64,000 bases of DNA. It comes from Methanobacteriota archaeon (GTDB lineage: Archaea; Thermoplasmatota; Thermoplasmata; SG8-5; DAIRED01). The stretch is taken from the NCBI GenBank assembly GCA_043799545.1, contig JAZDNO010000009.1:8262-72261 (forward strand). Direction: 5' to 3'. Made by a program: the position numbers and the translations under genes. Each line of letters opens with the position of its first letter. Position 1 is the stretch's first letter. Positions 10,090 to 56,021 of this stretch are shown piece by piece. The notes beneath the pieces are model-generated. The model ran no database searches. It worked only from the letters and a program-made list of their open reading frames with translations, and was not told the DNA's origin.

Positions 10090-10177
10090 ATCAATGGACT
10101 ATGGGGTTAATACCGTTTGCCTCTTAGCATCCCAGCAACGGTTATATAGAATAGTAATCTACCCATGGTCGTAGAAT

Positions 10178-10355
10178 GCCGAGGTAGCTCGGGATGCGAC
10201 CGGGGTCGCAGACCGCGCGGACGAGCTGGCCAGCGTGCGAGGAGCTCGTCCAGCGCCGAGGGTTGCAGCAGCAACCCGAGGGCTACCGAATAAAAGCGTT
10301 AAGAAGCCGAGGTAGCTTGCGAGGGCGAACGAATTCGCCGAGCAAAAACCTCGGC
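10178..10355 (+). repeat. two structured elements starting with the tRNA-Ser 5' end (GCCGAGGTAGCT) upstream of tRNA-Ser(GGA)
   Basis: copies at 10178 and 10306; 10306..10355 is closed by GCCGAGGT/ACCTCGGC; GGACGAGCT/AGCTCGTCC hairpin at 10219..10251. Confidence 0.75.
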
Positions 10356-10371
10356 TAGCCGATAGCAAAGT

Positions 10372-10480
10372 GCCGAGGTGGCTCAGCCCGGTAAGGCGCG
10401 AGCCTGGAATCTCCCGCTTCGGCGGGAGGCTGAGAGCTCGTGGGGGCAACCCCTCGGGAGTTCAAATCTCCCCCTCGGCG
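10372..10480 (+). tRNA. tRNA-Ser(GGA) with 25-nt intron at 37/38 (10410..10434)
   Basis: acceptor GCCGAGG/CCTCGGC, anticodon stem CGAGC/GCTCG, long variable arm GGGG-GCAA-CCCC, T arm GGGAG-TTCAAAT-CTCCC, discriminator G; intron hairpin CTCCCGC-TTCG-GCGGGAG. Confidence 0.92.
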
Positions 10481-10503
10481 CTCATTTTATATTTATTCTG
10501 ATA

Positions 10504-10570
10504 CGCGCCGAGGGGAGACTAAATCTTTGGTGGCATTTTGCGTTCATACGATTTAGTCTTGCCTTCGGTG
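10504..10570 (+). repeat. downstream stem-loop element antisense to the tRNA 3' end
   Basis: CGCGCCGAGGGGAGACTAAATC; AGACTAAATC (10516..10525) pairs GATTTAGTCT (10550..10559); related element at 42333. Confidence 0.7.
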
Positions 10571-10642
10571 GCTAACTACCATCTCATTGTTCGACACCAT
10601 CGGTCCCCCCACGCAGGCTCTGGGTGGATGCCTCAACTTCGC

Positions 10643-16214: not shown

Positions 16215-17644
16215 CTCCCCGCCCCCAGCTGCTTTCTGACGAGTTCCGACGCTATGCCCAAAAACTCCATCTCCCTGCCGGCTGGCACCGTCGCCCCGGC
16301 CGCTATGTTGTGGCCGCCGCCGAACCCGCCGACGCGCTCCGAGGCCGCCTTCATTATCGCGGAGAGGTCCAGCCCCCTGGCCACCATCTCCCTGGTGCCC
16401 CGTGCGGAGACCTTGACTCCGTCGTCGGCCCGCGCCAGTCCGAAAATCGGCACGTCGCGCCGCGCCCCGTCCGAATTGAGGGCCATGCCCGCCACCGTCC
16501 CGACGACGCTGTCCATGATTCTGTCGCCAGCATCGAAATACTGCAGGCCGTCCATCCCGTTGATGCCCACGTCGCGCACGACCTGAAGGCAATCGACCAG
16601 GTTGCGCCTGTGCCCCTGCTGGAGTCCGTAGGCCTCCTGGAGGATTTTTCCCCTGTCGCCCATCGCCACGCCGAGGCCGATATCGCCCTTCTCATAACGG
16701 CCACATGAATTGAGCAGGGTCGCAAACTCCTTCGCGTCGTGGAGGGGCGTACCTGGCTCCTCCTCGGTAAGGATGTAAACCTCCGAGGTGAGCTTCGAAG
16801 GTTGGTCGTGCTTGGCCAGCAGGGCTTCGAGGCGCTGGATAATCCGCATCCTCTCCCCCCGGTTGAGGTCTATCCACCTGCGCCAGTTCTCCCCGTCGCG
16901 GAGCTTTATCTTGGCGTCTATCATGAACCTGATGCAGGCCTCCTCGTCGTTTGCCAGTCCGGGAAGCTTCGGGTCGGACTGGTACTGAAGCATCTTGTAT
17001 GCCGGGCGCGTCTCCCTGCCGAAGAACGAGATGTCCTCCATCGCCTCGACGAGGCCTGTCTTCCTGGCATCTTCGAGTATGCCTGCGTTGAGCCCGCCCA
17101 GCTTCCCGGTGCTCCGGTCCTGGAGGTCTCCGACCGCGCCGATGATGGCTATCGGCGAAAGCATGACGTTTCGCGGGTCGATTGACTTGGCCACCAGATA
17201 TGCCGCTCCGGCTCCGCTGAGCTCCCTGCCCCCGTCGAGCCCGATGAGGTGGGGGTTGACTTGCGGAATCGTGGAATCTATAACGTCGAGGGCTTCGGCC
17301 AGCCTCGTGAGGTCCATCCTCTGCGCCGCGGTCGGCTCGCCTCCGGCCGATGGGACGTGGTGGTCGGTGATTATCGCATCCAACCCCTTCAGCATGGGAA
17401 GCTGGCCGCTGCCGAGGTCAGTGAGCCAAATCAGCCGCTTCTCGGCGCGGAGCGCCGCTGCGGCTGGCTCGTCGAGCTTCTTGAGAAATCGAATCTCATA
17501 TGGAACAGATAGGGCTTCCAGCGTCCTGGATGCTATGGCTCCCGCGCATATCCCGTCTGCGTCGATATGGGTTACGACGATGGCGGACTTCGCAGTGCGG
17601 ACGGCTTCGGCGGCGCGCGCTATCTCGTTGTCGAGTATGCTCAT
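16211..17644 (-). CDS. DHH family RecJ/Cdc45-like exonuclease
   Basis: THIDADGICAG, TDLGSG, TDHH, GAVGD, SARG, GGGHNIAAG. Confidence 0.92.
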   Translation of the reverse strand: MSILDNEIARAAEAVRTAKSAIVVTHIDADGICAGAIASRTLEALSVPYEIRFLKKLDEPAAAALRAEKRLIWLTDLGSGQLPMLKGLDAIITDHHVPSAGGEPTAAQRMDLTRLAEALDVIDSTIPQVNPHLIGLDGGRELSGAGAAYLVAKSIDPRNVMLSPIAIIGAVGDLQDRSTGKLGGLNAGILEDARKTGLVEAMEDISFFGRETRPAYKMLQYQSDPKLPGLANDEEACIRFMIDAKIKLRDGENWRRWIDLNRGERMRIIQRLEALLAKHDQPSKLTSEVYILTEEEPGTPLHDAKEFATLLNSCGRYEKGDIGLGVAMGDRGKILQEAYGLQQGHRRNLVDCLQVVRDVGINGMDGLQYFDAGDRIMDSVVGTVAGMALNSDGARRDVPIFGLARADDGVKVSARGTREMVARGLDLSAIMKAASERVGGFGGGHNIAAGATVPAGREMEFLGIASELVRKQLGAGS

Positions 17645-41890: not shown

Positions 41891-41984
41891 CGGTCGGAGG
41901 AGAGCCCCCAAAGTAAAAACCTTTTCCGTTGATATGCGTGGAAATTATTATTATGGCTCAGTAATATGCCATTGTCAGTCATGT

Positions 41985-42193
41985 GCCGAGGTAACTAAGC
42001 CCGGTTTACGCCTGACGAGCAAGCTCGTCCGCGCCTCGTGGCTTCGCCACTTCGGAGGTGCCAGCCTGGCACTAAAACCTTTTATATGCCTAGGTAACTA
42101 AGCCCGGTTTACGCTGGACGAGCTGCGCTCGTCCGCGCCTCGTGGCTTCGCCACTTCGGAGGTGCCAGCTACTGGCACTAAAACCTTTGATAC
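41985..42193 (+). repeat. two tandem 103/106-nt repeats made of the tRNA-Ser(TGA) 5' half with a 47-48 nt insert
   Basis: units 41985..42087 and 42088..42193: GCC(G/T)AGGTAACTAAGCCCGGTTTA + insert + AGGTGCCAGC + TGGCACTAAAACCTTT. Confidence 0.9.
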
Positions 42194-42308
42194 GCCGAGG
42201 TAACTAAGCCCGGTTTAAGGTGCCAGCCTTGAGTGCGCCAGAAAAAGAACTGGTGCCTGGCGAGCTGGTGGTGTCATCACCTCGGGAGTTCGAATCTCCC
42301 CCTCGGCG
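42194..42308 (+). tRNA. tRNA-Ser(TGA) with 29-nt intron at 37/38 (42234..42262)
   Basis: acceptor GCCGAGG/CCTCGGC, anticodon stem CCAGC/GCTGG, loop CT-TGA-G^A, variable arm GGTG/CACC, T arm GGGAG-TTCGAAT-CTCCC; intron stem GCGCCAG/CTGGTGC gives a relaxed BHB. Confidence 0.93.
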
Positions 42309-42332
42309 CTACACTTTTTTATCGCTTTCAAT

Positions 42333-42443
42333 CGCGCCGAGGGGAGACTAATCTTTGCTGGTAGTAAGTAATAACCGATTAATCTTACCCTCAGAGACAC
42401 ACCAAATCCACGTTGCTAGTCTCTTCGGTCTCCCCCTCGGCGC
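42333..42443 (+). repeat. downstream inverted-repeat element ending in a 15-bp copy of the tRNA 3' end
   Basis: CGCGCCGAGGGGAGACTAATC... TAGTCTCTTCGG, then TCTCCCCCTCGGCGC (42429..42443 = 42295..42309). Confidence 0.75.
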
Positions 42444-42502
42444 ATCATGTTGCTTCTCCGTCAGCCGTTAATCTTTTATCCCCTCGCGGCGTAAGGGGAA
42501 AC

Positions 42503-45775: not shown

Positions 45776-47302
45776 TTACCAATCCACCGTCCAGACTGTA
45801 TCAGCAGGAACGTGGACCCAGTACCCTCTCCCAGGTTTCATTACGTAACTAGGCCCGACTGTCGTGGTCATGTACGGAGCGCCAGCGTCGAAGACTTCGA
45901 CTATGTCGGCGCTCGTGCCCCAGAAAGCAGTCGCAACGGTCACGCCCGCCGCAAGGGTCGGGTAGCCGACGAGGTTCCAGCCAGCTCGAAGTTGTATCTG
46001 TGTGGAAGGTGCCATTAATCCAGATACATTTAAGTAGCCGTCACCGACGAGCCCAATATAAATCCAAAACCCCATATATGGCTCGACGCGCGTCAGGTCA
46101 TTTAATGACGGATTCCAAAACGGATTATATTGCTTCCAATGATCCTGCATGTCAGCAGAGTCGTACCACATTACTCGGTCAAAGTAGGTGTCGCCGTCCA
46201 TAAGTTGCGTGTAAAGGTTGAAAGTTGGGATTTCCATCGGGACTGAGATGAGGTTCCAGCCGGTAACAACAGGGATTTTAATATATTGCGGCAGAGGAGC
46301 CCCCCACGGTTGCATTATAGGATATCTGTCTCGGGCGCCAGCACCTCCCAGGATGTTCAAATAGGGCGTATCGCCAATGCCGTCGCAGCCTGGTATGGAC
46401 TGATCGAATCCTCTGCAATAATCCACCCCGCTGTAATCGCCCCAGTAATTGCCGCCGGAGGGGTAACCGTTATCCCATTGATTGGTACCATATCCGTATG
46501 CTTGATTGCTGGTGAAGTTGTTGTGATAGATTGTATTGCCAGAACTTGATTCGTAAACGTATATGTCGATATCGTTATTTGAGACATTGTTGTTGAAAAC
46601 AATATTGCTGGAAGAATCGATTGAGATTCCGACGTTGTTGTTTGTGACTATGTTATCAGAAATTATATTGCCATTGGAGTAGTATACGGCGATGCCAATC
46701 GCCCCGTTCCCAGAAACAGAGTTATATGAGATTGTGTTACTGTCAGACCCGGAAAGAGATATGCTCGATGCGACGTTATTATTAATGATGTTGCCGTTGG
46801 ATTCGTCGATATGGATATCAATATAATTGTTCAGGAATGTATTGTTAGCGATTTTATTACTATTAGAATAGAGAAAGTGTATGCCGTAGCTATTACTTGA
46901 GAGGCTATTATTATCAATTTTACCATTCTGGACACCATAGAAAGTTAAGCCCACATCAAAAAACCACGGCCAGTTATCGGTCCCATACGCATCGTGCAGA
47001 TATAAGTTTCTTATAACAAAGTTATTGGTTGTATTACCAATATATATACAATAACCATATCCATTCCCATTGATCTCCCAGTTCTCGATAATCCACGGAT
47101 TAGATGCGTTTCCTGACCCTCCTGAGACGCCGTGCGCCACGTCGAAATCCGCATTCGAGTTTATCCGTATTGGCGCATGCGACACATACGATGTCACGTT
47201 CCCAATATTTCTCGCCTCCGACTCACCCGATGGCTCTATAAAGATTAAAGCACTCGATAGTATCACCAGCAAACTCAACACTAGCGACACACCTTTTCGC
47301 AA
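45776..47302 (-). CDS. secreted NosD/CASH parallel beta-helix protein with conserved C-terminal domain
   Basis: signal peptide, HAPIRI module, GI.L..S..N.I.NN repeats, GGNYW module, GWNL..P x2 tail; probable TTG start after AGAGG. Confidence 0.88.
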   Translation of the reverse strand: MRKGVSLVLSLLVILSSALIFIEPSGESEARNIGNVTSYVSHAPIRINSNADFDVAHGVSGGSGNASNPWIIENWEINGNGYGYCIYIGNTTNNFVIRNLYLHDAYGTDNWPWFFDVGLTFYGVQNGKIDNNSLSSNSYGIHFLYSNSNKIANNTFLNNYIDIHIDESNGNIINNNVASSISLSGSDSNTISYNSVSGNGAIGIAVYYSNGNIISDNIVTNNNVGISIDSSSNIVFNNNVSNNDIDIYVYESSSGNTIYHNNFTSNQAYGYGTNQWDNGYPSGGNYWGDYSGVDYCRGFDQSIPGCDGIGDTPYLNILGGAGARDRYPIMQPWGAPLPQYIKIPVVTGWNLISVPMEIPTFNLYTQLMDGDTYFDRVMWYDSADMQDHWKQYNPFWNPSLNDLTRVEPYMGFWIYIGLVGDGYLNVSGLMAPSTQIQLRAGWNLVGYPTLAAGVTVATAFWGTSADIVEVFDAGAPYMTTTVGPSYVMKPGRGYWVHVPADTVWTVDW

Positions 47303-47403
47303 TTCCAACCTCTGATGACTATAGTTTCCGCGCACTAAATACCTTTCGCTATAGATATATTGACGAAGATTGAACACTCTCGGAATAATGCGCGTCCGGC
47401 AGA

Positions 47404-48600
47404 TCACTCCAGTATCAGCGCCTGCATCTTTTCCTCAACCCCGTCGAACCAGCCCAGGTCGCCGTCCCAGTCCTTGAGGGGCTTGGAATATTGCGCCTCC
47501 ATTTCCGATACCATGGCCTTCAGCTTCGCCTTGAACGCGTCTGCGACGAAGCCTTCCACGACAGCGACCAGGAAGACCCTGCGCCCCTTCTGGAAGACGA
47601 TCTTCATGTCCCCGTACTTTAGCTCGTCAAGGATGCCTTTTTTTGCAGAAAGGAGCGAATCTGCGACGAAGTCCTTGATGGACATCAGCATCGCCGAGAC
47701 GACCGTCGGGTCGATTTCCGATGCGACGTCGCTCGACTTGACGTGCTGTATCAGCAGGCCGTTGTCGTATATGAGCATCAATTGGTTGACCTTGTACCGG
47801 CCCGCTGGCTCTACGTGCAGCATCGTCGTCCTCGACCATATCATGACCATGAATCCCGCGTTCAGTATCAGGAACGAAAGGATGAAAAGCGAATCCGAGA
47901 GCCCTGCGGGGATTCCTAGCCCCAGCATCGATTGGTACGTGAACAGCAGTATGTCGATGCAGAAGAACAGCAGCCCCGCGGTGATGACGAGCCAGTAATA
48001 CAGAATCTTGCCGCTTCCGTAGAGGAGAAGAAGCAGCGACAGCAATTCAATTGTGAATATCGAGAGGAAGGCGTATGCCAAAAGGGTGGCAACAGCCGCC
48101 CTCCCATACCCCGAGCCCTCGATGCCGTATATCAGCGGACCCAGCGTCGCCAGCAAGACGAAAATCCATGCCGTGCTCAGGATGAGCACCTTGCGCTGGT
48201 CGAGGTATTCGTAGCTCTTGCCGAGTATCGAGACGCATATGAATATCAAGGGGACGTATCCCAGCAGCCAGAAGAAATCAGGGACGTCGGGGAGGCTGAT
48301 TGCAGAGCCCGTCAACGACATCACCGTTGCGGTTATCTGCGCGAATGAGAACAGCAGAAGGGTCGCCAGCAGGCACGCGCCGACTATCGCGAAGTCATCC
48401 TGCCCGAGGTATTTCAGGATATACACGCAGAGCGCTATCGACAGGAAAGCTGAAGCGAGCGCGACGAAGTTCGAGTATTCCGAAGACGCCCGCGACTCAA
48501 GGAAGAAAGGCGGCAGCGAGAGGGCGATGCACGCGAGCGTCAGACCCAGCCCGAACTTCCTGACCTTCTCCCGGATTGCATTCCCGCCGCTGTCGGTCAC
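47404..48600 (-). CDS. multi-TM membrane protein with C-terminal longin-like alpha/beta domain
   Basis: 7-8 TM segments, then LIYDNGLLI..., VSAMLMSIKDF, LKYGDMKIVFQKG..VFLVAVV. Confidence 0.7.
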   Translation of the reverse strand: MTDSGGNAIREKVRKFGLGLTLACIALSLPPFFLESRASSEYSNFVALASAFLSIALCVYILKYLGQDDFAIVGACLLATLLLFSFAQITATVMSLTGSAISLPDVPDFFWLLGYVPLIFICVSILGKSYEYLDQRKVLILSTAWIFVLLATLGPLIYGIEGSGYGRAAVATLLAYAFLSIFTIELLSLLLLLYGSGKILYYWLVITAGLLFFCIDILLFTYQSMLGLGIPAGLSDSLFILSFLILNAGFMVMIWSRTTMLHVEPAGRYKVNQLMLIYDNGLLIQHVKSSDVASEIDPTVVSAMLMSIKDFVADSLLSAKKGILDELKYGDMKIVFQKGRRVFLVAVVEGFVADAFKAKLKAMVSEMEAQYSKPLKDWDGDLGWFDGVEEKMQALILE

Positions 48601-50613: not shown

Positions 50614-53600
50614 TTACCAATCAACGGTCCAAACTGAATCCGCAACGACGTGAACCCAGTACCCTTCTCCAGGTCTCATGATGTAACTCGGCCCGACTGT
50701 CGTGGTCATATATGGAGCGCCAGCGTCGAAGACTTCGACTATGTCGGCGCTCGTGCCCCAGAACGCAGTCGCGATGGTAGTATTCGTCGAAAGGGTCGGG
50801 TAGCCCACGAGGTTCCAGCCAGTCCTTAGTTGTATCTGCGTCGAGATGGGGACGACCCCGGTAAGATTCAGGTAACCGTCGCCTACGTCCGTCACGTTGA
50901 TCCAAAATCCCATCGATGTCTCCACGCGGGTCAGGTCGTTCATAACCCAAGGCCACGCTGTATTGAACTGCTTCCAATAGTCTTGCGGGTTCTCGGAATC
51001 GTACCACATGACGCGGTCCCACTGAGTGTCGCCATCGAGGAACTGAGCGGGGAGCGTTAGGCTAGGGATTTCCAGCGGAACAGATATTAGGTTCCAACCC
51101 AGGACAACAGGTATTCTGAAGAAAGTTGGCGAAGGCGTCTGCGAGGTATTCCATGGCAACATCATAGGATAATTGTCCAATGCCCCTGTCCCGCCCCGGA
51201 TGTCCGAGTAGGGCGTATCGCCGATGCCGTCGGAACCGGGTTCGTTTTGTTCTGGACCAGAGAACAAGTCGATGCCGGAAAAATCGGTCCAGTAGTTGCC
51301 TCCAGAGGGGTAGCTGTTGTCCCAGAGGTTGGTGCCAGTGTTGTCATAGGCTTGGTTCATATTATCTATAAAGTTGTTGTGATAGATTGTATTGCTGTTT
51401 GAGAAGGAGAGGTAGATGCCATACCCATTGTTCGAGGATGCGGTGTTGTGGGCGACGGTGTTGCCGACGGAGGTGTAGAGGTAGATGCCATACCAGTTAT
51501 CCGAGGCGAAGTTGTCGACTAAGGTGTTGCTACTGCAATCCCAGTATAGGTATAAGCCGTACGAGTTGTTCGAGACCGTATTGTTTGCGATGGCATTCAT
51601 ATCGCACCATGCGTACAAGTAGATGCCATTCGTGTCATTTAAGACGGTGTTGTGGGCGACGGTGTTGCCGCTGCTATACCAGTATAAGTAGATGCCAGTT
51701 GAGCCGTTCGAGGCCGTGTTGTAGATTATGTCGTTGCTGGTAGAGGAATAAAGGTAGATGCCACACTCGTTGTTCGAGGCGTCGTTGCTGGCGATGGTGG
51801 CGCCAGTCGAGGAGCCGAGGTAGATGCCATACCCGTTATTCGATGCGGTGTTGCTGACGATCGTGGCGCTTATTGAGGAGCCGAGGTAGATACCGTAGAT
51901 ATTGTTCGAGGAAACGGTGTTGTGTGTGATGGTGTCGCTGCTGGATGAATCTAGGTAGATACCGCAGTCGCAGAATTGAACCAGGTTGCCGGAAACCTGC
52001 GATAGCGAAGATTGACTCTGATACAATCCGAAGGATGCTTCCGATACTGAGTTGTCGGAAATGAACGAATTGGTCATATCTGTTCCGTATATGCCGATGA
52101 AAAACCCGGTGACGTTGTTTCCGCTGATCGTGAGGTCACTGTCCTGCGTGTAGATTCCGTACATGGATAATTCTGTGGCTGTGCATAGCTGGAACTTCCC
52201 CGGCGGCCCTTGGCCTTCCACGGAACCTGTCACCACATTCCATCCATACACCGCTATTATATATTGTCCGTTCGGCGGATTGATGAGCTTTATGGCTTCG
52301 TTGCTATCGTCGTCCGCACAGAGTGCGTAACCGCCCATGGACCATTTTGCATACGATACCGCGCCCATAATTTCCCCATCTCTTATTCTCTCGCCAGGGT
52401 CAATTATTCCGTCGAAGTCCAAATCGTAGTATATTGCGAGGTCAAGGTCATCCATTTGGTCGCCCACAATGTGAACGGTGTAAGATGGATTGTTGATGAT
52501 GGAGACGACTCTCTGATAGCTCGCAAGACGGTATGAGTACACATATTCCTCCCAAGTCGTGGCATTGTTCTGCTCGTCTAGGTCGGACTCGCACTCCTGC
52601 CATATTGGCTCGTCGATATACATTTGTTCGTCGTGATCCGAATTGCCAGCAATCGTATTGTTCCTGATGGAGTTGCCGCTGGAAATGTCAACATAGATGC
52701 CATAGTGATTGTTCGAGGAGGCGGCGTTGTTGACGACAGTGTTGTTGCTAGAGGAGTAGAGAGAGATACCACAGCTGTTGTTTGAGGCAGTGTTGTTTGC
52801 GATGACGTTGCTGTCGGAGTTATAGAGGTAGATACCGAATTCGTTGTTCGAGGATGCTGTGTTTCCATAAATCGTGCCGTTATGTACATTGTAAAAAGTG
52901 ATACCGGAATCTGGATTGTACAGTGGAATACCAACTCCACTGGCCTCATGAAGGGTGCAATTACTAATCACGAAATGGTTTGTCGTATTTCCGATATAGA
53001 TGCAATATCCATACCCTGTGCCGTTGATTTCCCATCCTCCTATCACCCAAGGGTCTGCAATCGTTCCCGCGCCACTTATCACCCCGTGTGCCAGATCGAA
53101 CTCCGAATCAGAATTTATTCTGATGGGTTGGTGAGGAAGTGGGCCATTGTTCTTGATAGGATGATACATTGGATAGTTATCTTGAGCTATCCCCCCCTCG
53201 ACATATGTGTAGGGGATATCCCCAATTCCATCGCTCCCCAGGATGTCCTGGTTCGGCCCGGAGAAATCATCGTCGCCGATATAATCACTCCAGTAGTTGC
53301 CTCCGATCGGATAGCTGGAATTCCAGAGATTCACCCCATCGTCTAACGCTTGAATCACATTGTTGATGATGTTGTTGTGGTAGATGACATCGCCATCACA
53401 TCCCACCAGGGCGATGCCGTAATCATATGATGAAAACACAGTATTGTTGTGCAATATATTATCATTGGAACTCTCTAAAATGATTCCCCACATGTTATAC
53501 GAGGCTGTATTGTTGGCGACCATGATGTCGTTGGACAAAGACAGATAAATACCACATCCCTCGTTCCCTCTCATCTCGTTGTCCGTCACAATGCCGTTAT

Positions 53601-55323
53601 TGACGTTAAATAGTATCAACCCTGAATCGGAATGGAAAGGCCATGTACCGTACCCACTCGCATCGTGCAGACGGCACCCGCGCATTACAAAACAATCTGT
53701 GGTGTTCCCAACGTAGATGCAAGCTCCATACCCCGCCCCATCGATGTCCCAGTTCTCGATTATCCACGGGTTGGAAGTAGTGCCGTTCCCGGCCGAAACG
53801 CCATGCGCTACGTCGAACTCTGCGTTCGAATCTATACGGATTGGCGCGTGCGGCACTGGCTCCGAAGGGGATGGGGTCAACATCGACATCAACGGGTAGT
53901 TGTCCTGGGCACCGGCCCCGCCCTGGATGTCTGTATTCGGTGTGTCGCTGATGCCGTCGCTCCCGGAGATGTTCTGCCCCGGACCCGATAAGATGTCCGC
54001 CCCCGCGTAGTCGCTCCAGTAGTTGCCTCCAGAGGGGTAGCCGTTGTCCCAGAGGTTGGTGCCAGTGTTGTCATAGGCTTGGTTCATATTATCTATAAAG
54101 TTGTTGTGATAGATTGTATTGCCGTCTGAATAGGAAGCATGTACGCCTTCGGGATTGTTCGAGACGATGTTATTTTCAATCGTACCTCCGGTGGAATCGA
54201 TGACGTAGATGCCGCATCCGTCGTTGGATGAAACGGTGTTGTTTGCAAGCACGAAGTCCGAGGCAGCGTCGAGGTATATCCCGAAGTAATGGTTTAAGGT
54301 GGCTGAGTTTTTGAAGACTTTGTTGCTAGCGCTGGAGTCAATTTCGATGCCGCATTCTTCGTTCGAGAAGACGACATTACGAATCATTGTATTGTTGTCG
54401 GAATTAAAAAATAAGCATATACCAGACCAACCGTTCAAGGATGCGATGTTATCGGAGATGACGTTTCCTATGGACTCAAATACATAGATGCCGTCCTCAT
54501 AGTTCGAGTTGGCTGTGTTGTTTTCCAGTATGTTGCCGTTGGACGAATCAAGGTATATACCATATAGGCTCGAATTGGCGGTGTTGTCGCTGAGCATGTT
54601 GCCGCCAGACAACTCGAAGTAGATGCCAATCCCATCGCTACTCGACGAGACTGCGTTGCCAGTGATAATGTTGTCGTCAGAGGAAACTATGTGTATGCCA
54701 TTAAAAGTATTGATTGCTGTATTGTTGATGATGAAGTTGCCGCTAGCTTCGTATGTGTAGATGCCATCATCGTAGTTCGAAGAGACATTGTTGCCCATCA
54801 AGGTTACGCCGCTGGAAGATTCGATGATGATGCCCTCGATATTGTAGATTGCGGTGTTGTCAGCGACGACGACACTGTTGCTGGATCCAACGATGTGAAA
54901 ACCAGCGTTGTCGTTCGATGAAGCCGTATTATTCATAATCGTACCGTTCCGAGCGTTGAATAAAATGAGGCCCGAGTCTAGAAAGTAAGGGGTTATGCCA
55001 ATTCCATATGCATCGTGCAAATGGCATCCCCTTACTGTAAAGCAATCCGTCGTGTTCCCTATATACATGCAATATCCACTTTCTTCACCGCTAATTTCCC
55101 AGTTCTCGATTATCCACGGGTTGGAAGATGTTCCGTTCCCGGTCGAAACACCGTGCGCCGCATTAAAGTCTGCGTTCGAGTCGATTCGTATCGGCGCGTG
55201 CGCGACATACGCCGTCCATTTACCAGCAGGCGTCGCCCCCGATTCGCCCAATGGTTCTATGACCACTATTGCGCCAGACAATGTCACCAGCAAGCCCACC
55301 GCTATTGCCACACATTTTCTCAT
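50614..55323 (-). CDS. giant secreted NosD/CASH beta-helix protein (~1569 aa)
   Basis: signal peptide MRKCVAIAVGLLV; three H(A/Q)PIRI...GGNYW...DNYP cassettes; same C-terminal domain as 45776..47302; lower GC. Confidence 0.9.
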   Translation of the reverse strand: MRKCVAIAVGLLVTLSGAIVVIEPLGESGATPAGKWTAYVAHAPIRIDSNADFNAAHGVSTGNGTSSNPWIIENWEISGEESGYCMYIGNTTDCFTVRGCHLHDAYGIGITPYFLDSGLILFNARNGTIMNNTASSNDNAGFHIVGSSNSVVVADNTAIYNIEGIIIESSSGVTLMGNNVSSNYDDGIYTYEASGNFIINNTAINTFNGIHIVSSDDNIITGNAVSSSSDGIGIYFELSGGNMLSDNTANSSLYGIYLDSSNGNILENNTANSNYEDGIYVFESIGNVISDNIASLNGWSGICLFFNSDNNTMIRNVVFSNEECGIEIDSSASNKVFKNSATLNHYFGIYLDAASDFVLANNTVSSNDGCGIYVIDSTGGTIENNIVSNNPEGVHASYSDGNTIYHNNFIDNMNQAYDNTGTNLWDNGYPSGGNYWSDYAGADILSGPGQNISGSDGISDTPNTDIQGGAGAQDNYPLMSMLTPSPSEPVPHAPIRIDSNAEFDVAHGVSAGNGTTSNPWIIENWDIDGAGYGACIYVGNTTDCFVMRGCRLHDASGYGTWPFHSDSGLILFNVNNGIVTDNEMRGNEGCGIYLSLSNDIMVANNTASYNMWGIILESSNDNILHNNTVFSSYDYGIALVGCDGDVIYHNNIINNVIQALDDGVNLWNSSYPIGGNYWSDYIGDDDFSGPNQDILGSDGIGDIPYTYVEGGIAQDNYPMYHPIKNNGPLPHQPIRINSDSEFDLAHGVISGAGTIADPWVIGGWEINGTGYGYCIYIGNTTNHFVISNCTLHEASGVGIPLYNPDSGITFYNVHNGTIYGNTASSNNEFGIYLYNSDSNVIANNTASNNSCGISLYSSSNNTVVNNAASSNNHYGIYVDISSGNSIRNNTIAGNSDHDEQMYIDEPIWQECESDLDEQNNATTWEEYVYSYRLASYQRVVSIINNPSYTVHIVGDQMDDLDLAIYYDLDFDGIIDPGERIRDGEIMGAVSYAKWSMGGYALCADDDSNEAIKLINPPNGQYIIAVYGWNVVTGSVEGQGPPGKFQLCTATELSMYGIYTQDSDLTISGNNVTGFFIGIYGTDMTNSFISDNSVSEASFGLYQSQSSLSQVSGNLVQFCDCGIYLDSSSSDTITHNTVSSNNIYGIYLGSSISATIVSNTASNNGYGIYLGSSTGATIASNDASNNECGIYLYSSTSNDIIYNTASNGSTGIYLYWYSSGNTVAHNTVLNDTNGIYLYAWCDMNAIANNTVSNNSYGLYLYWDCSSNTLVDNFASDNWYGIYLYTSVGNTVAHNTASSNNGYGIYLSFSNSNTIYHNNFIDNMNQAYDNTGTNLWDNSYPSGGNYWTDFSGIDLFSGPEQNEPGSDGIGDTPYSDIRGGTGALDNYPMMLPWNTSQTPSPTFFRIPVVLGWNLISVPLEIPSLTLPAQFLDGDTQWDRVMWYDSENPQDYWKQFNTAWPWVMNDLTRVETSMGFWINVTDVGDGYLNLTGVVPISTQIQLRTGWNLVGYPTLSTNTTIATAFWGTSADIVEVFDAGAPYMTTTVGPSYIMRPGEGYWVHVVADSVWTVDW

Positions 55324-55457
55324 TCCCAGCCTCAGGCAACCATTGTCGCAACACATCAAATACTTTTCTATGTGCCATATATTTAGAATATACGCACATA
55401 GGAGACCGATCCATTCACTGCGGCATCTCCAAATACGCGCGGCGCGTTTCCAATCCG

Positions 55458-56021
55458 ATGAGCGGAGGCGTTTTCAGCGTCGGCGGCGTCGATGTCCAAT
55501 ACGACGTCGAGGTGAGGCGCGTGCGCAACGCCAGGCTCCAGTTCAAGGGAGACAGGCTCCTCGTCATCATGCCCGCACATGGCGACCCGCGCGAGGCCAT
55601 TTCGCGCAACTGGCGCTGGGTTTACAAGCATCATGCCAAGATGAGGAAGGCGCTTGATGACGCCTCAGTCGCGGACCTGGAGAGCAGGAGCGAGGACGAC
55701 TTCAAAAGGCTGGCGTGCTGGCTAGTTGAACTGTACTCTAAAGAGCTGGGCGTGAAGGCGGGCAAGGTCGCCTTCAAGGTGCTGAAATCCAAATGGGGGA
55801 GCTGCAGCTCCACCGGGGGGATAAGCCTCAACCTGGCAATGCGCCATCTGCCCGAACGGCTGGTGAGGTATGTCGTCTACCATGAGGTCGCGCACCTCGC
55901 GGAGCTGAACCACGGAAAGGGATTCTGGAGCATCGTGGCCCGGAGGTTTCCAGACAGGGATTCGGTGGAAAACGAGCTGCTGGCCTACTGGTTCGTCGTT
56001 TGCAGGATATACGACTTCTGA
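55458..56021 (+). CDS. M48/YgjP-like metallopeptidase domain protein
   Basis: KSKWGSCS, I.LN, YVVYHEVAHL..LNHGKGFW. Confidence 0.88.
   Translation: MSGGVFSVGGVDVQYDVEVRRVRNARLQFKGDRLLVIMPAHGDPREAISRNWRWVYKHHAKMRKALDDASVADLESRSEDDFKRLACWLVELYSKELGVKAGKVAFKVLKSKWGSCSSTGGISLNLAMRHLPERLVRYVVYHEVAHLAELNHGKGFWSIVARRFPDRDSVENELLAYWFVVCRIYDF

Follow-up and report, generated by a model that had tools for sequence, protein, structure and literature searches.

Gene-less hairpin modules at tRNA-Ser genes of an uncultured archaeon, possibly one family homing to stable-RNA gene ends in an order of Thermoplasmata

Several described systems combine short hairpins or copies of a tRNA end with mobility or repetition, and each resembles in part the modules described here. 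In E. coli, tyrT/rtT-type units lie in tandem behind a tRNA gene, each with a copy of the tRNA 3' end; to our knowledge these repeats have neither an antisense arm nor a conserved core, and they occur at a few loci rather than as a genome-wide habit. The attL/attR duplications made in archaea by tyrosine-integrase elements that target tRNA genes duplicate the same tRNA segment as the modules (from the T-loop to the 3' end), but the modules contain no genes, measure only about 100 nt, and combine an antisense arm with a hairpin; they are found at more than 25 different RNA ends, at 5' ends as well, and in tandem stacks. Integron attC sites and the attP site of CTX phage are likewise imperfect hairpins with conserved bulges that function on one strand and mimic a duplex site; they are cut by tyrosine recombinases at fixed boxes, however, and no comparable boxes were identified in the modules. 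REP/REPIN sequences with their RAYT proteins share with the modules the form of hairpin-forming, gene-less intergenic units of about 100 nt, and REPs are believed to depend for their movement on a Y1 enzyme that acts in trans, is encoded by a single gene copy, and is inherited vertically (PMC3333891, PMC8266576, PMC3116915). REPs have one genome-wide consensus, do not copy their neighbors, and are not tied to RNA gene ends, whereas the arms of the modules differ from locus to locus. The single-strand transposons of the IS200/IS605 family (IS608, ISDra2) and PATEs, their derivatives without genes, resemble the modules in being small, in having strand-specific imperfect hairpins, and in having gene-less copies that outnumber autonomous ones. 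The IS608 transposase binds such hairpins, a guide 5' of the hairpin foot reads both the cleavage and the target sites, and the left cleavage site lies a linker away from guide and hairpin; engineered IS608-type elements with lengthened pairing have 12/17-nt targets (PMC5934647). The IS200/IS605 guide is 4 nt long with mixed pairing, however, whereas the module arm is 10-16 nt long with canonical, host-specific pairing, and the modules often have one hairpin rather than two and are flanked by a long direct copy of the target. Our search of the literature found no description of such modules.

The window, by which we mean the whole stretch of DNA analyzed, comprises 64,000 nt (contig 15, positions 8262-72261) of the 2.06-Mb draft genome (~60% G+C) of an uncultured archaeon (G000). 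It was compared with a congeneric genome (G001), with metagenome relatives (among them L160 and L168), and with other genomes that include a member of another family of the order (G004) and of a family outside the order (G029). Window positions 46001-48000 and 52001-56000 have 47-51% G+C, against ~60% elsewhere in the window, and may be foreign DNA. Default ARAGORN finds no tRNA at either of the two tRNA-Ser loci because both genes contain introns, which are of the archaeal type. With introns allowed, it places tRNA-Ser(GGA), with a 25-nt intron, at 10372-10481 and a second gene at 42194-42309, both on the + strand; the second gene is labelled Thr by ARAGORN, its anticodon loop is TGA, and the syntenic gene of G001 is called Ser(TGA). 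At the gathering score, Rfam 15 detects only tRNA in the window, and of the two genes only the first (RF00005, 39.4 bits).

An earlier note on this DNA had pointed to a motif that follows both tRNA-Ser genes after a T-rich spacer, with a left part complementary to the tRNA end, and in both respects the sequence bears it out. The motif GCGCCGAGGGGAGACTAA (18 nt) lies at 10505-10522 and 42334-42351 without a mismatch, 23 and 24 nt from the tRNA end, and no further site in the window matches it with up to three mismatches (chance expectation 0.08). Its first 14 nt form an arm, X' (10505-10518 and 42334-42347), which is the reverse complement of X, the last 15 nt of the tRNA gene (tRNA positions 60-74; 10467-10481 and 42295-42309), with one G missing and 11 nt exact. 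One extra match to the tRNA end, at window position ~32521, lies inside coding sequence and is dismissed as chance. Between gene and arm, the terminator-like spacer s1 occupies 10482-10504 at the first locus (23 nt), where it is part of the unit repeated in related loci, and 42310-42333 at the second (24 nt, including a T6 run).

Behind the arm, each locus can fold into a hairpin encoded on the + strand. At locus 1 (hairpin core 10519-10572), RNAfold and the family alignment A2 give a core stem at 10519-10525/10550-10556, a 24-nt loop, and an imperfect 3' arm X'' at 10557-10572. Altogether, 10550-10572 pairs with 10506-10525 in a 20-bp imperfect hairpin with one bulge and three G.U pairs, all on the + strand, at -31.9 kcal/mol (RNAfold). 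The partner that the earlier note proposed for locus 2, TAGTCTCTTCGG (42417-42428), is the end of a tail that abuts a direct copy of the tRNA end, and the nearer partner arm is 42377-42396: arm and hairpin span 42334-42396, with the core stem at 42348-42353/42377-42382 and an imperfect X'' at 42383-42396 (loops are 23-24 nt at the two loci). Behind the tail of locus 2 (42397-42428, ending in TTCGG), the last 15 nt of the tRNA recur as a direct repeat without any mismatch (42429-42443), which the earlier note had not recognized as a copy, and in the minimum-free-energy fold of the whole Ser(TGA) module X' pairs with this distal copy. At locus 1, the corresponding segment (10573-10617) consists of a tail ending in TCGG and a degenerate distal copy (10604-10617) directly before the stop (10643) of a convergent DUF6159 gene; tail and copy are intact at locus 2 and in L160. 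In G001 (contig 95, 5100-6300), the Ser(TGA) module is separated from the TPR gene by an S-adenosylmethionine synthetase-like gene, and the corresponding place in G000 (window 42444-42502) contains no gene.

Both genes also have modules on their 5' side. At Ser(GGA), these occupy 10178-10371 (+ strand), between a TATA-like sequence (10141-10150) and the gene, and include a displaced copy of tRNA positions 1-13 (10178-10190), a core hairpin that matches the covariance model CM R1 (10219-10251), and additional partial copies of the tRNA 5' end. At Ser(TGA), the 5' side (41983-42193, + strand) is occupied by a tandem pair of modules, each about 105 nt long and opening with a copy of tRNA positions 1-24, and G001 has a further insert of ~147 nt at this site. 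A TATA-like box is found about 28 nt before the displaced copy of the first 13-24 tRNA nucleotides at both Ser genes (10141-10371 and 41940-42193). In L160, the promoter abuts tRNA-Ser(GGA), and the 5' modules are absent. The 5' modules lie between promoter and gene, and therefore the pre-tRNA is obliged to carry a leader of 105-210 nt with hairpins and partial tRNA copies.

The elements are not a peculiarity of tRNA-Ser: the same layout, in which a T-rich spacer leads to an arm antisense to the end of its own gene and to a conserved core hairpin, in many cases with that end repeated once more, recurs throughout the source genome, behind 29 of 37 tRNA genes (counted by an antisense or direct copy) and behind the gene for SRP RNA. 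An exact antisense match of at least 9 nt to the gene's own tail occurs within 90 nt downstream of 17/37 tRNAs, against 1% of non-cognate pairs, and a direct copy of the end of at least 10 nt at 18/37 (0.7% of non-cognate pairs). Exact X..X'..X triples are found at nine loci in 2 Mb, eight of which are tRNA genes. A third locus of the Ser type, tRNA-Cys, has two tandem units, which share an identical 48-nt stretch of X, spacer, and arm, together with additional partial copies of the tRNA end; the spacers of the Ser and Cys loci are homologous, and in tandem arrays the spacer is duplicated with the unit. The discriminator of this tRNA-Cys(GCA) is C (G000 contig 10, 163586-163656, L003), as it is in G001 (L112), and a relative in another family has the usual U73. 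U73 is the main identity element for CysRS.

Most modules of the source genome have a core other than the Ser/Cys type, and several unrelated core sequences coexist there, which is hard to reconcile with a single hairpin-specific transposase. The covariance model of the most common core (GGAC-type), CM R1, has 26 matches in the source genome; in the survey of the class, it gives 23 and 27 copies in the two genomes of the genus and only two copies in the other 149 genomes sampled. All 19 CM R1 matches near annotated tRNAs lie on the tRNA strand (18 downstream, 1 upstream), and the remaining ones lie behind intron-bearing tRNAs missed by ARAGORN, behind the SRP RNA gene, and behind an RNA gene with a three-unit array; at each of these remaining loci, the arm matches the end of its own gene. 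The same core hairpin family stands behind at least 16 different tRNAs with differing arms. Behind the SRP (7S) RNA gene (G000 contig 20, ~16660-17030) come a T-rich spacer, a 6-nt arm antisense to the 3' end of that gene, and a two-hairpin module of the common core family. The three-module array (contig 12, ~97800-98110, minus strand) follows an RNA-like gene, and its arms match the last ~17 nt of that gene. Arms that match the ends of the SRP RNA gene and of this RNA-like gene imply that the T-loop is not needed.

Outside the genus, the X-spacer-X' pattern of the Ser and Cys ends is limited to the four families of the order, across which spacer and arm at tRNA-Ser are conserved, with one exception: a single match in a fifth family (G095, f13), which has no T-rich spacer and looks like chance. 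Most of 57 metagenome matches to the short patterns, and all matches in bacterial genomes, are likewise put down to chance. A census of about 30 tRNA loci per genome, scored for the own-tail signature, found it at 18/30 loci in G001, 9/32 in G004, 9/30 in G029, and 1/31 in G026. No credible Rfam family was found in 20 module loci at E values up to 1.

The hairpins covary. Among 16 aligned modules of the common core, 6 of 8 stem pairs show compensatory changes, and 93.7% of cells are paired, compared with 80% in shuffled alignments, of which none in 500 reaches the observed values. The Ser/Cys family (A2 alignment, 9 copies from 5 genomes) has 15 predicted pairs, 6 of them with compensatory changes, and an invariant G.U beside a one-base bulge. 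As predicted from this alignment, the Ser/Cys hairpin is a conserved imperfect palindrome that would be legible only on the tRNA-sense strand. Strand-specific subterminal imperfect palindromes of this kind, by which IS200/IS605 elements are recognized, are therefore present, and all copies lie on the strand of the host gene. Five bases at the start of the arm take no part in the hairpin pairing, but in the nine copies they track the discriminator end of the tRNA, with different versions of this extension in Ser, in Cys of this genus, and in Cys of another family; the arm is therefore matched to the gene end or the distal copy, not only to its hairpin partner. In L168, the T-stem has changed while the arm has not, which might seem to speak against pairing, but the resulting G.U still pairs. 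Readings of the core as a C/D-box, H/ACA, or K-turn RNA were rejected by eye, as box motifs and bulge geometry are absent.

The arm does not, as a rule, define where a module ends. Its 5' end sets the outer junction in the Ser, Cys, and Pro(GGG) modules, but this fails in 8 of 12 modules. The duplicated segment is 13-27 nt long and always extends to the tRNA end, whereas the arm often spans only its first 10-11 nt, and therefore the arm does not set the outer junction.

Comparison of 30 tRNA loci of G001 with their counterparts in G000 reveals how modules come and go. At tRNA-Met, G001 is empty, and G000 has a clean insert of 101 nt that consists of spacer, arm, core, and one copy of X, after which the native flank resumes at ~85% identity between the two genomes; the same filled and empty pattern is seen at tRNA-Gly(TCC). 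The empty sites in related genomes that the earlier note had suggested looking for thus exist at these two genes; for the tRNA-Ser 3' modules themselves, no strain-level presence or absence was found among the genomes compared. An identical stretch of 14-17 nt borders the tRNA-Met insert at either end, which fits either a copy borne by the element or a duplication, and such direct repeats leave three geometries looking alike: entry of the module directly behind the tRNA, entry within the T-loop with the module supplying a replacement end, and a long target duplication. At tRNA-Thr(CGU), Thr(GGU), Phe, Gln(CUG), and Gly(CCC), the tRNA genes are 92-100% identical between G000 and G001 and the core families of their modules differ. 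Where one genome has an extra module (Phe in G001; Gln(CUG) and Cys in G000), it is the tRNA-proximal one. The Ser(TGA) module is common to both genomes, with a decayed right arm and an unchanged 21-nt left part in G001, and is older than their split. In L160, a tandem pair of 3' modules stands behind tRNA-Ser(GGA), and the core of one of the two shows a compensatory change. Module insertion, stacking, distal decay, and arms matched to the host gene are all seen directly in these comparisons, and we consider it probable that these sequences are mobile insertion modules matched to the ends of their host genes. On balance, we favor the view that the 3' elements of the tRNA-Ser genes are gene-less insertion modules of ~100-135 nt that belong to a family homing to stable-RNA gene ends, although our preference for this fuller statement is slight.

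Of the two readings offered in the earlier note, the one of a MITE-like element inserted beside tRNA genes leads in the right direction (other copies exist, as do filled and empty sites, tandem stacks, and decay), but the modules are not classical MITEs. The inverted repeat is formed between the module and the end of the host gene and is therefore a different one at each tRNA, even where modules have a core in common. A module's own two ends, spacer and tail, are not inverted repeats of each other, and the duplicated segment lacks the short, fixed length of a MITE target duplication. Membership of the REP/RAYT class is rejected as well, given that the Y1 protein encoded here (discussed below) scores as IS200-type and there is no single consensus. 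A miniature casposon, suggested by the 14-15-bp duplication at tRNA ends, was also discarded, as terminal inverted repeats are missing and the length of the duplication varies. The family is grouped here with small non-autonomous hairpin elements and may well turn out to be a separate kind.

How the modules would move can be outlined by analogy with IS608. Each module begins with its T-rich spacer, followed by the arm, which is antisense to the final 10-16 nt of the gene, by an imperfect, strand-specific hairpin core, and usually by a distal copy of the gene end. In this scheme, these would correspond to the IS608 parts as follows: the gene end to the target, the spacer to the linker, the arm to the guide, the hairpin to the hairpin, and, in simple modules, the distal copy to a target copy at the right end. 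The module would move as single-stranded DNA, and the antisense arm would find its target by pairing with the single-stranded sense strand of a gene end. New modules land next to the tRNA and push older ones outward, where these decay, and the T-rich spacer would terminate the tRNA transcript, so that the gene stays functional. Guide-directed, single-strand insertion of this sort is a tentative proposal, and the chances are against it. The arm lies directly at the foot of the hairpin and mirrors the end of its host gene, but it does not set the outer junction in most modules tested (8 of 12). With the same reserve, the arm could be a true DNA guide, such that one enzyme, encoded by the host or by the element family, reads the 10-16-nt arm beside the hairpin and inserts the module at matching stable-RNA ends; this is possible, though we would not expect it. 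If the arm were a guide, the family would be naturally programmable and would form a new class of insertion elements directed by DNA guides, having retargeted itself to the SRP RNA gene, to the 5' ends of tRNAs, and to over 25 tRNA ends, a prospect that we regard as no less tentative.

The leading but weak candidate for the enzyme is an IS200-type Y1 transposase whose HUH and tyrosine motifs are intact and which 13 of the 17 genomes of the order encode as a conserved, single-copy ortholog. The protein scores 109 bits against NF033573 and 19 bits against the RAYT model NF047646, far below the cut-off of the latter. Its gene often adjoins a long-arm tRNA: in G000 (contig 25, 29957-30582; L128) and at the syntenic place in G001 (contig 138; L110), the Y1 gene is followed by a small hairpin, a partial 5' copy of tRNA-Leu(GAG), a promoter-like AT run, and the tRNA, and its orthologs in G004, G007, and G010 each adjoin a long-arm tRNA identified by ARAGORN as Phe(GAA). 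Unlike a typical IS200/IS605 transposase gene, it is single-copy, conserved like a host gene, and missing from a genome that bears modules: G029, which is 94% complete, has no match to PF01797 and has perfect 3'-end copies behind 9/30 tRNAs. That this protein moves the modules is therefore doubtful. Neither TnpB nor reverse transcriptase was found in our search; a TnpB/omega-RNA reading was dropped for want of TnpB, and so was RNA-mediated copying, given the missing reverse transcriptase and the arm at tRNA-Pro(GGG), which copies genomic bases past the discriminator rather than CCA.

Three other explanations need to be weighed against insertion by a mobile family. The modules might be RNA or DNA structures useful to the host, such as a back-up terminator, a roadblock, a fail-safe misfolding device, a minihelix-like decoy, or a processing signal, that spread by duplication and selection. 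Much of what was found could be read in this way: compensatory changes preserve the hairpin in three families, with its conserved G.U and bulge on the strand of the tRNA, the spacer and arm at tRNA-Ser are conserved throughout the order, the arm and the end copy together reproduce both strands of the acceptor and T stems, and the 5' modules, lying between promoter and tRNA, are obligatorily transcribed. The order-wide conservation of spacer and arm and the compensatory changes in the stem could be equally compatible with a host function. The other option in the earlier note, a switch competing with tRNA folding, belongs here: in a read-through RNA cut after the arm, X pairs with X' and the arm outcompetes the acceptor stem, but the whole module keeps the cloverleaf of Ser(TGA); a switch is thermodynamically possible but unsupported as a function, with T-runs ahead of the arm, the arm held in its own hairpin, modules turning over between congeneric genomes, and the right arm of the Ser(TGA) module decayed in G001. 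No promoter is spaced to start an RNA at the arm; the one TATA-like run in the spacer lies only ~13-20 nt before it, and a transcript from there would begin inside the arm. Nor do the lack of an Rfam family, the absence of modules from most of the class (a single tRNA of 31 in G026), the replacement of cores at identical tRNAs of congeners, tandem stacking and decay, or the tRNA-Met of G001, which works without a module, suit a structure that serves the host, and we consider this explanation unlikely.

Mobility of a different sort would be involved if the modules were scars or miniature derivatives of integrative elements that target tRNA genes: a tyrosine integrase would recombine the gene with a tRNA 3' end carried by the element, leaving attL/attR direct repeats, and later deletions would reduce the element to ~100 nt. 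This is a real alternative because a classical case exists in the same genome, beside tRNA-Trp, and direct repeats of the tRNA end flank the modules as att repeats would. The tRNA-Trp case (G000 contig 12, ~53950-74695; L130, L131) is a 20-kb island with 38-47% G+C. A tyrosine integrase gene adjoins the tRNA, and the island also encodes a 2556-aa ORF and an IS200-type protein in which the usual catalytic tyrosine motif is missing. The AT-rich island sits between the tRNA and its hairpin modules, its flanking att repeats are 17-19 nt of the tRNA end, from the same tRNA segment as in the modules, and two of the four tyrosine recombinase genes in the genome lie beside tRNAs. However, the island ends without an antisense arm or core hairpin, and the modules hold no ORF and do not share their ends with the Trp island, as a full-length relative would. 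More than 25 RNA ends would demand as many integrase specificities, the same core recurs with different arms, two-hairpin modules lack the distal repeat, and modules at 5' ends and at the SRP RNA gene misfit att sites at 3' ends. A double-stranded circle of ~100 bp, moreover, is physically implausible. We therefore regard such scars as quite improbable. Equally improbable, in our estimation, is an origin without any dedicated enzyme, in which replication or repair of heavily transcribed RNA genes gives rise to the modules as by-products, with inverted and direct copies of the adjacent gene end produced when the template is switched at a stable hairpin. Such a process would account for arms that are always local copies, genomic bases past the discriminator rather than CCA included, and for modules in a genome without a Y1 match (G029), and the 48-nt identity of the tandem Cys units suggests conversion or slippage. 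It does not account for the spread of one covarying core (23-27 copies) to more than 16 loci in one genus, for inserted segments that bring their own T-rich spacer, or for the common strand and common position relative to the gene that all copies share. Insertion by a mobile family homing to stable-RNA gene ends remains the reading that we prefer.

The modules matter for annotation, as tRNA genes embedded in stacks of partial copies and hairpins break assemblies (contigs of G001 end at tRNA loci) and confuse tRNA finders, and the modules themselves might be misread as att sites, pseudogenes, or regulatory RNAs. Should they serve the host instead, they would add a novel layer to the architecture of tRNA genes in one Thermoplasmata order. 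If guide-directed insertion is true, the family would be a natural, compact, long-guide system for DNA-directed insertion and the natural counterpart of the engineered long-guide IS608. It would also be a case of selfish DNA that lives harmlessly at essential RNA genes, because each module brings its own terminator and a spare gene end.
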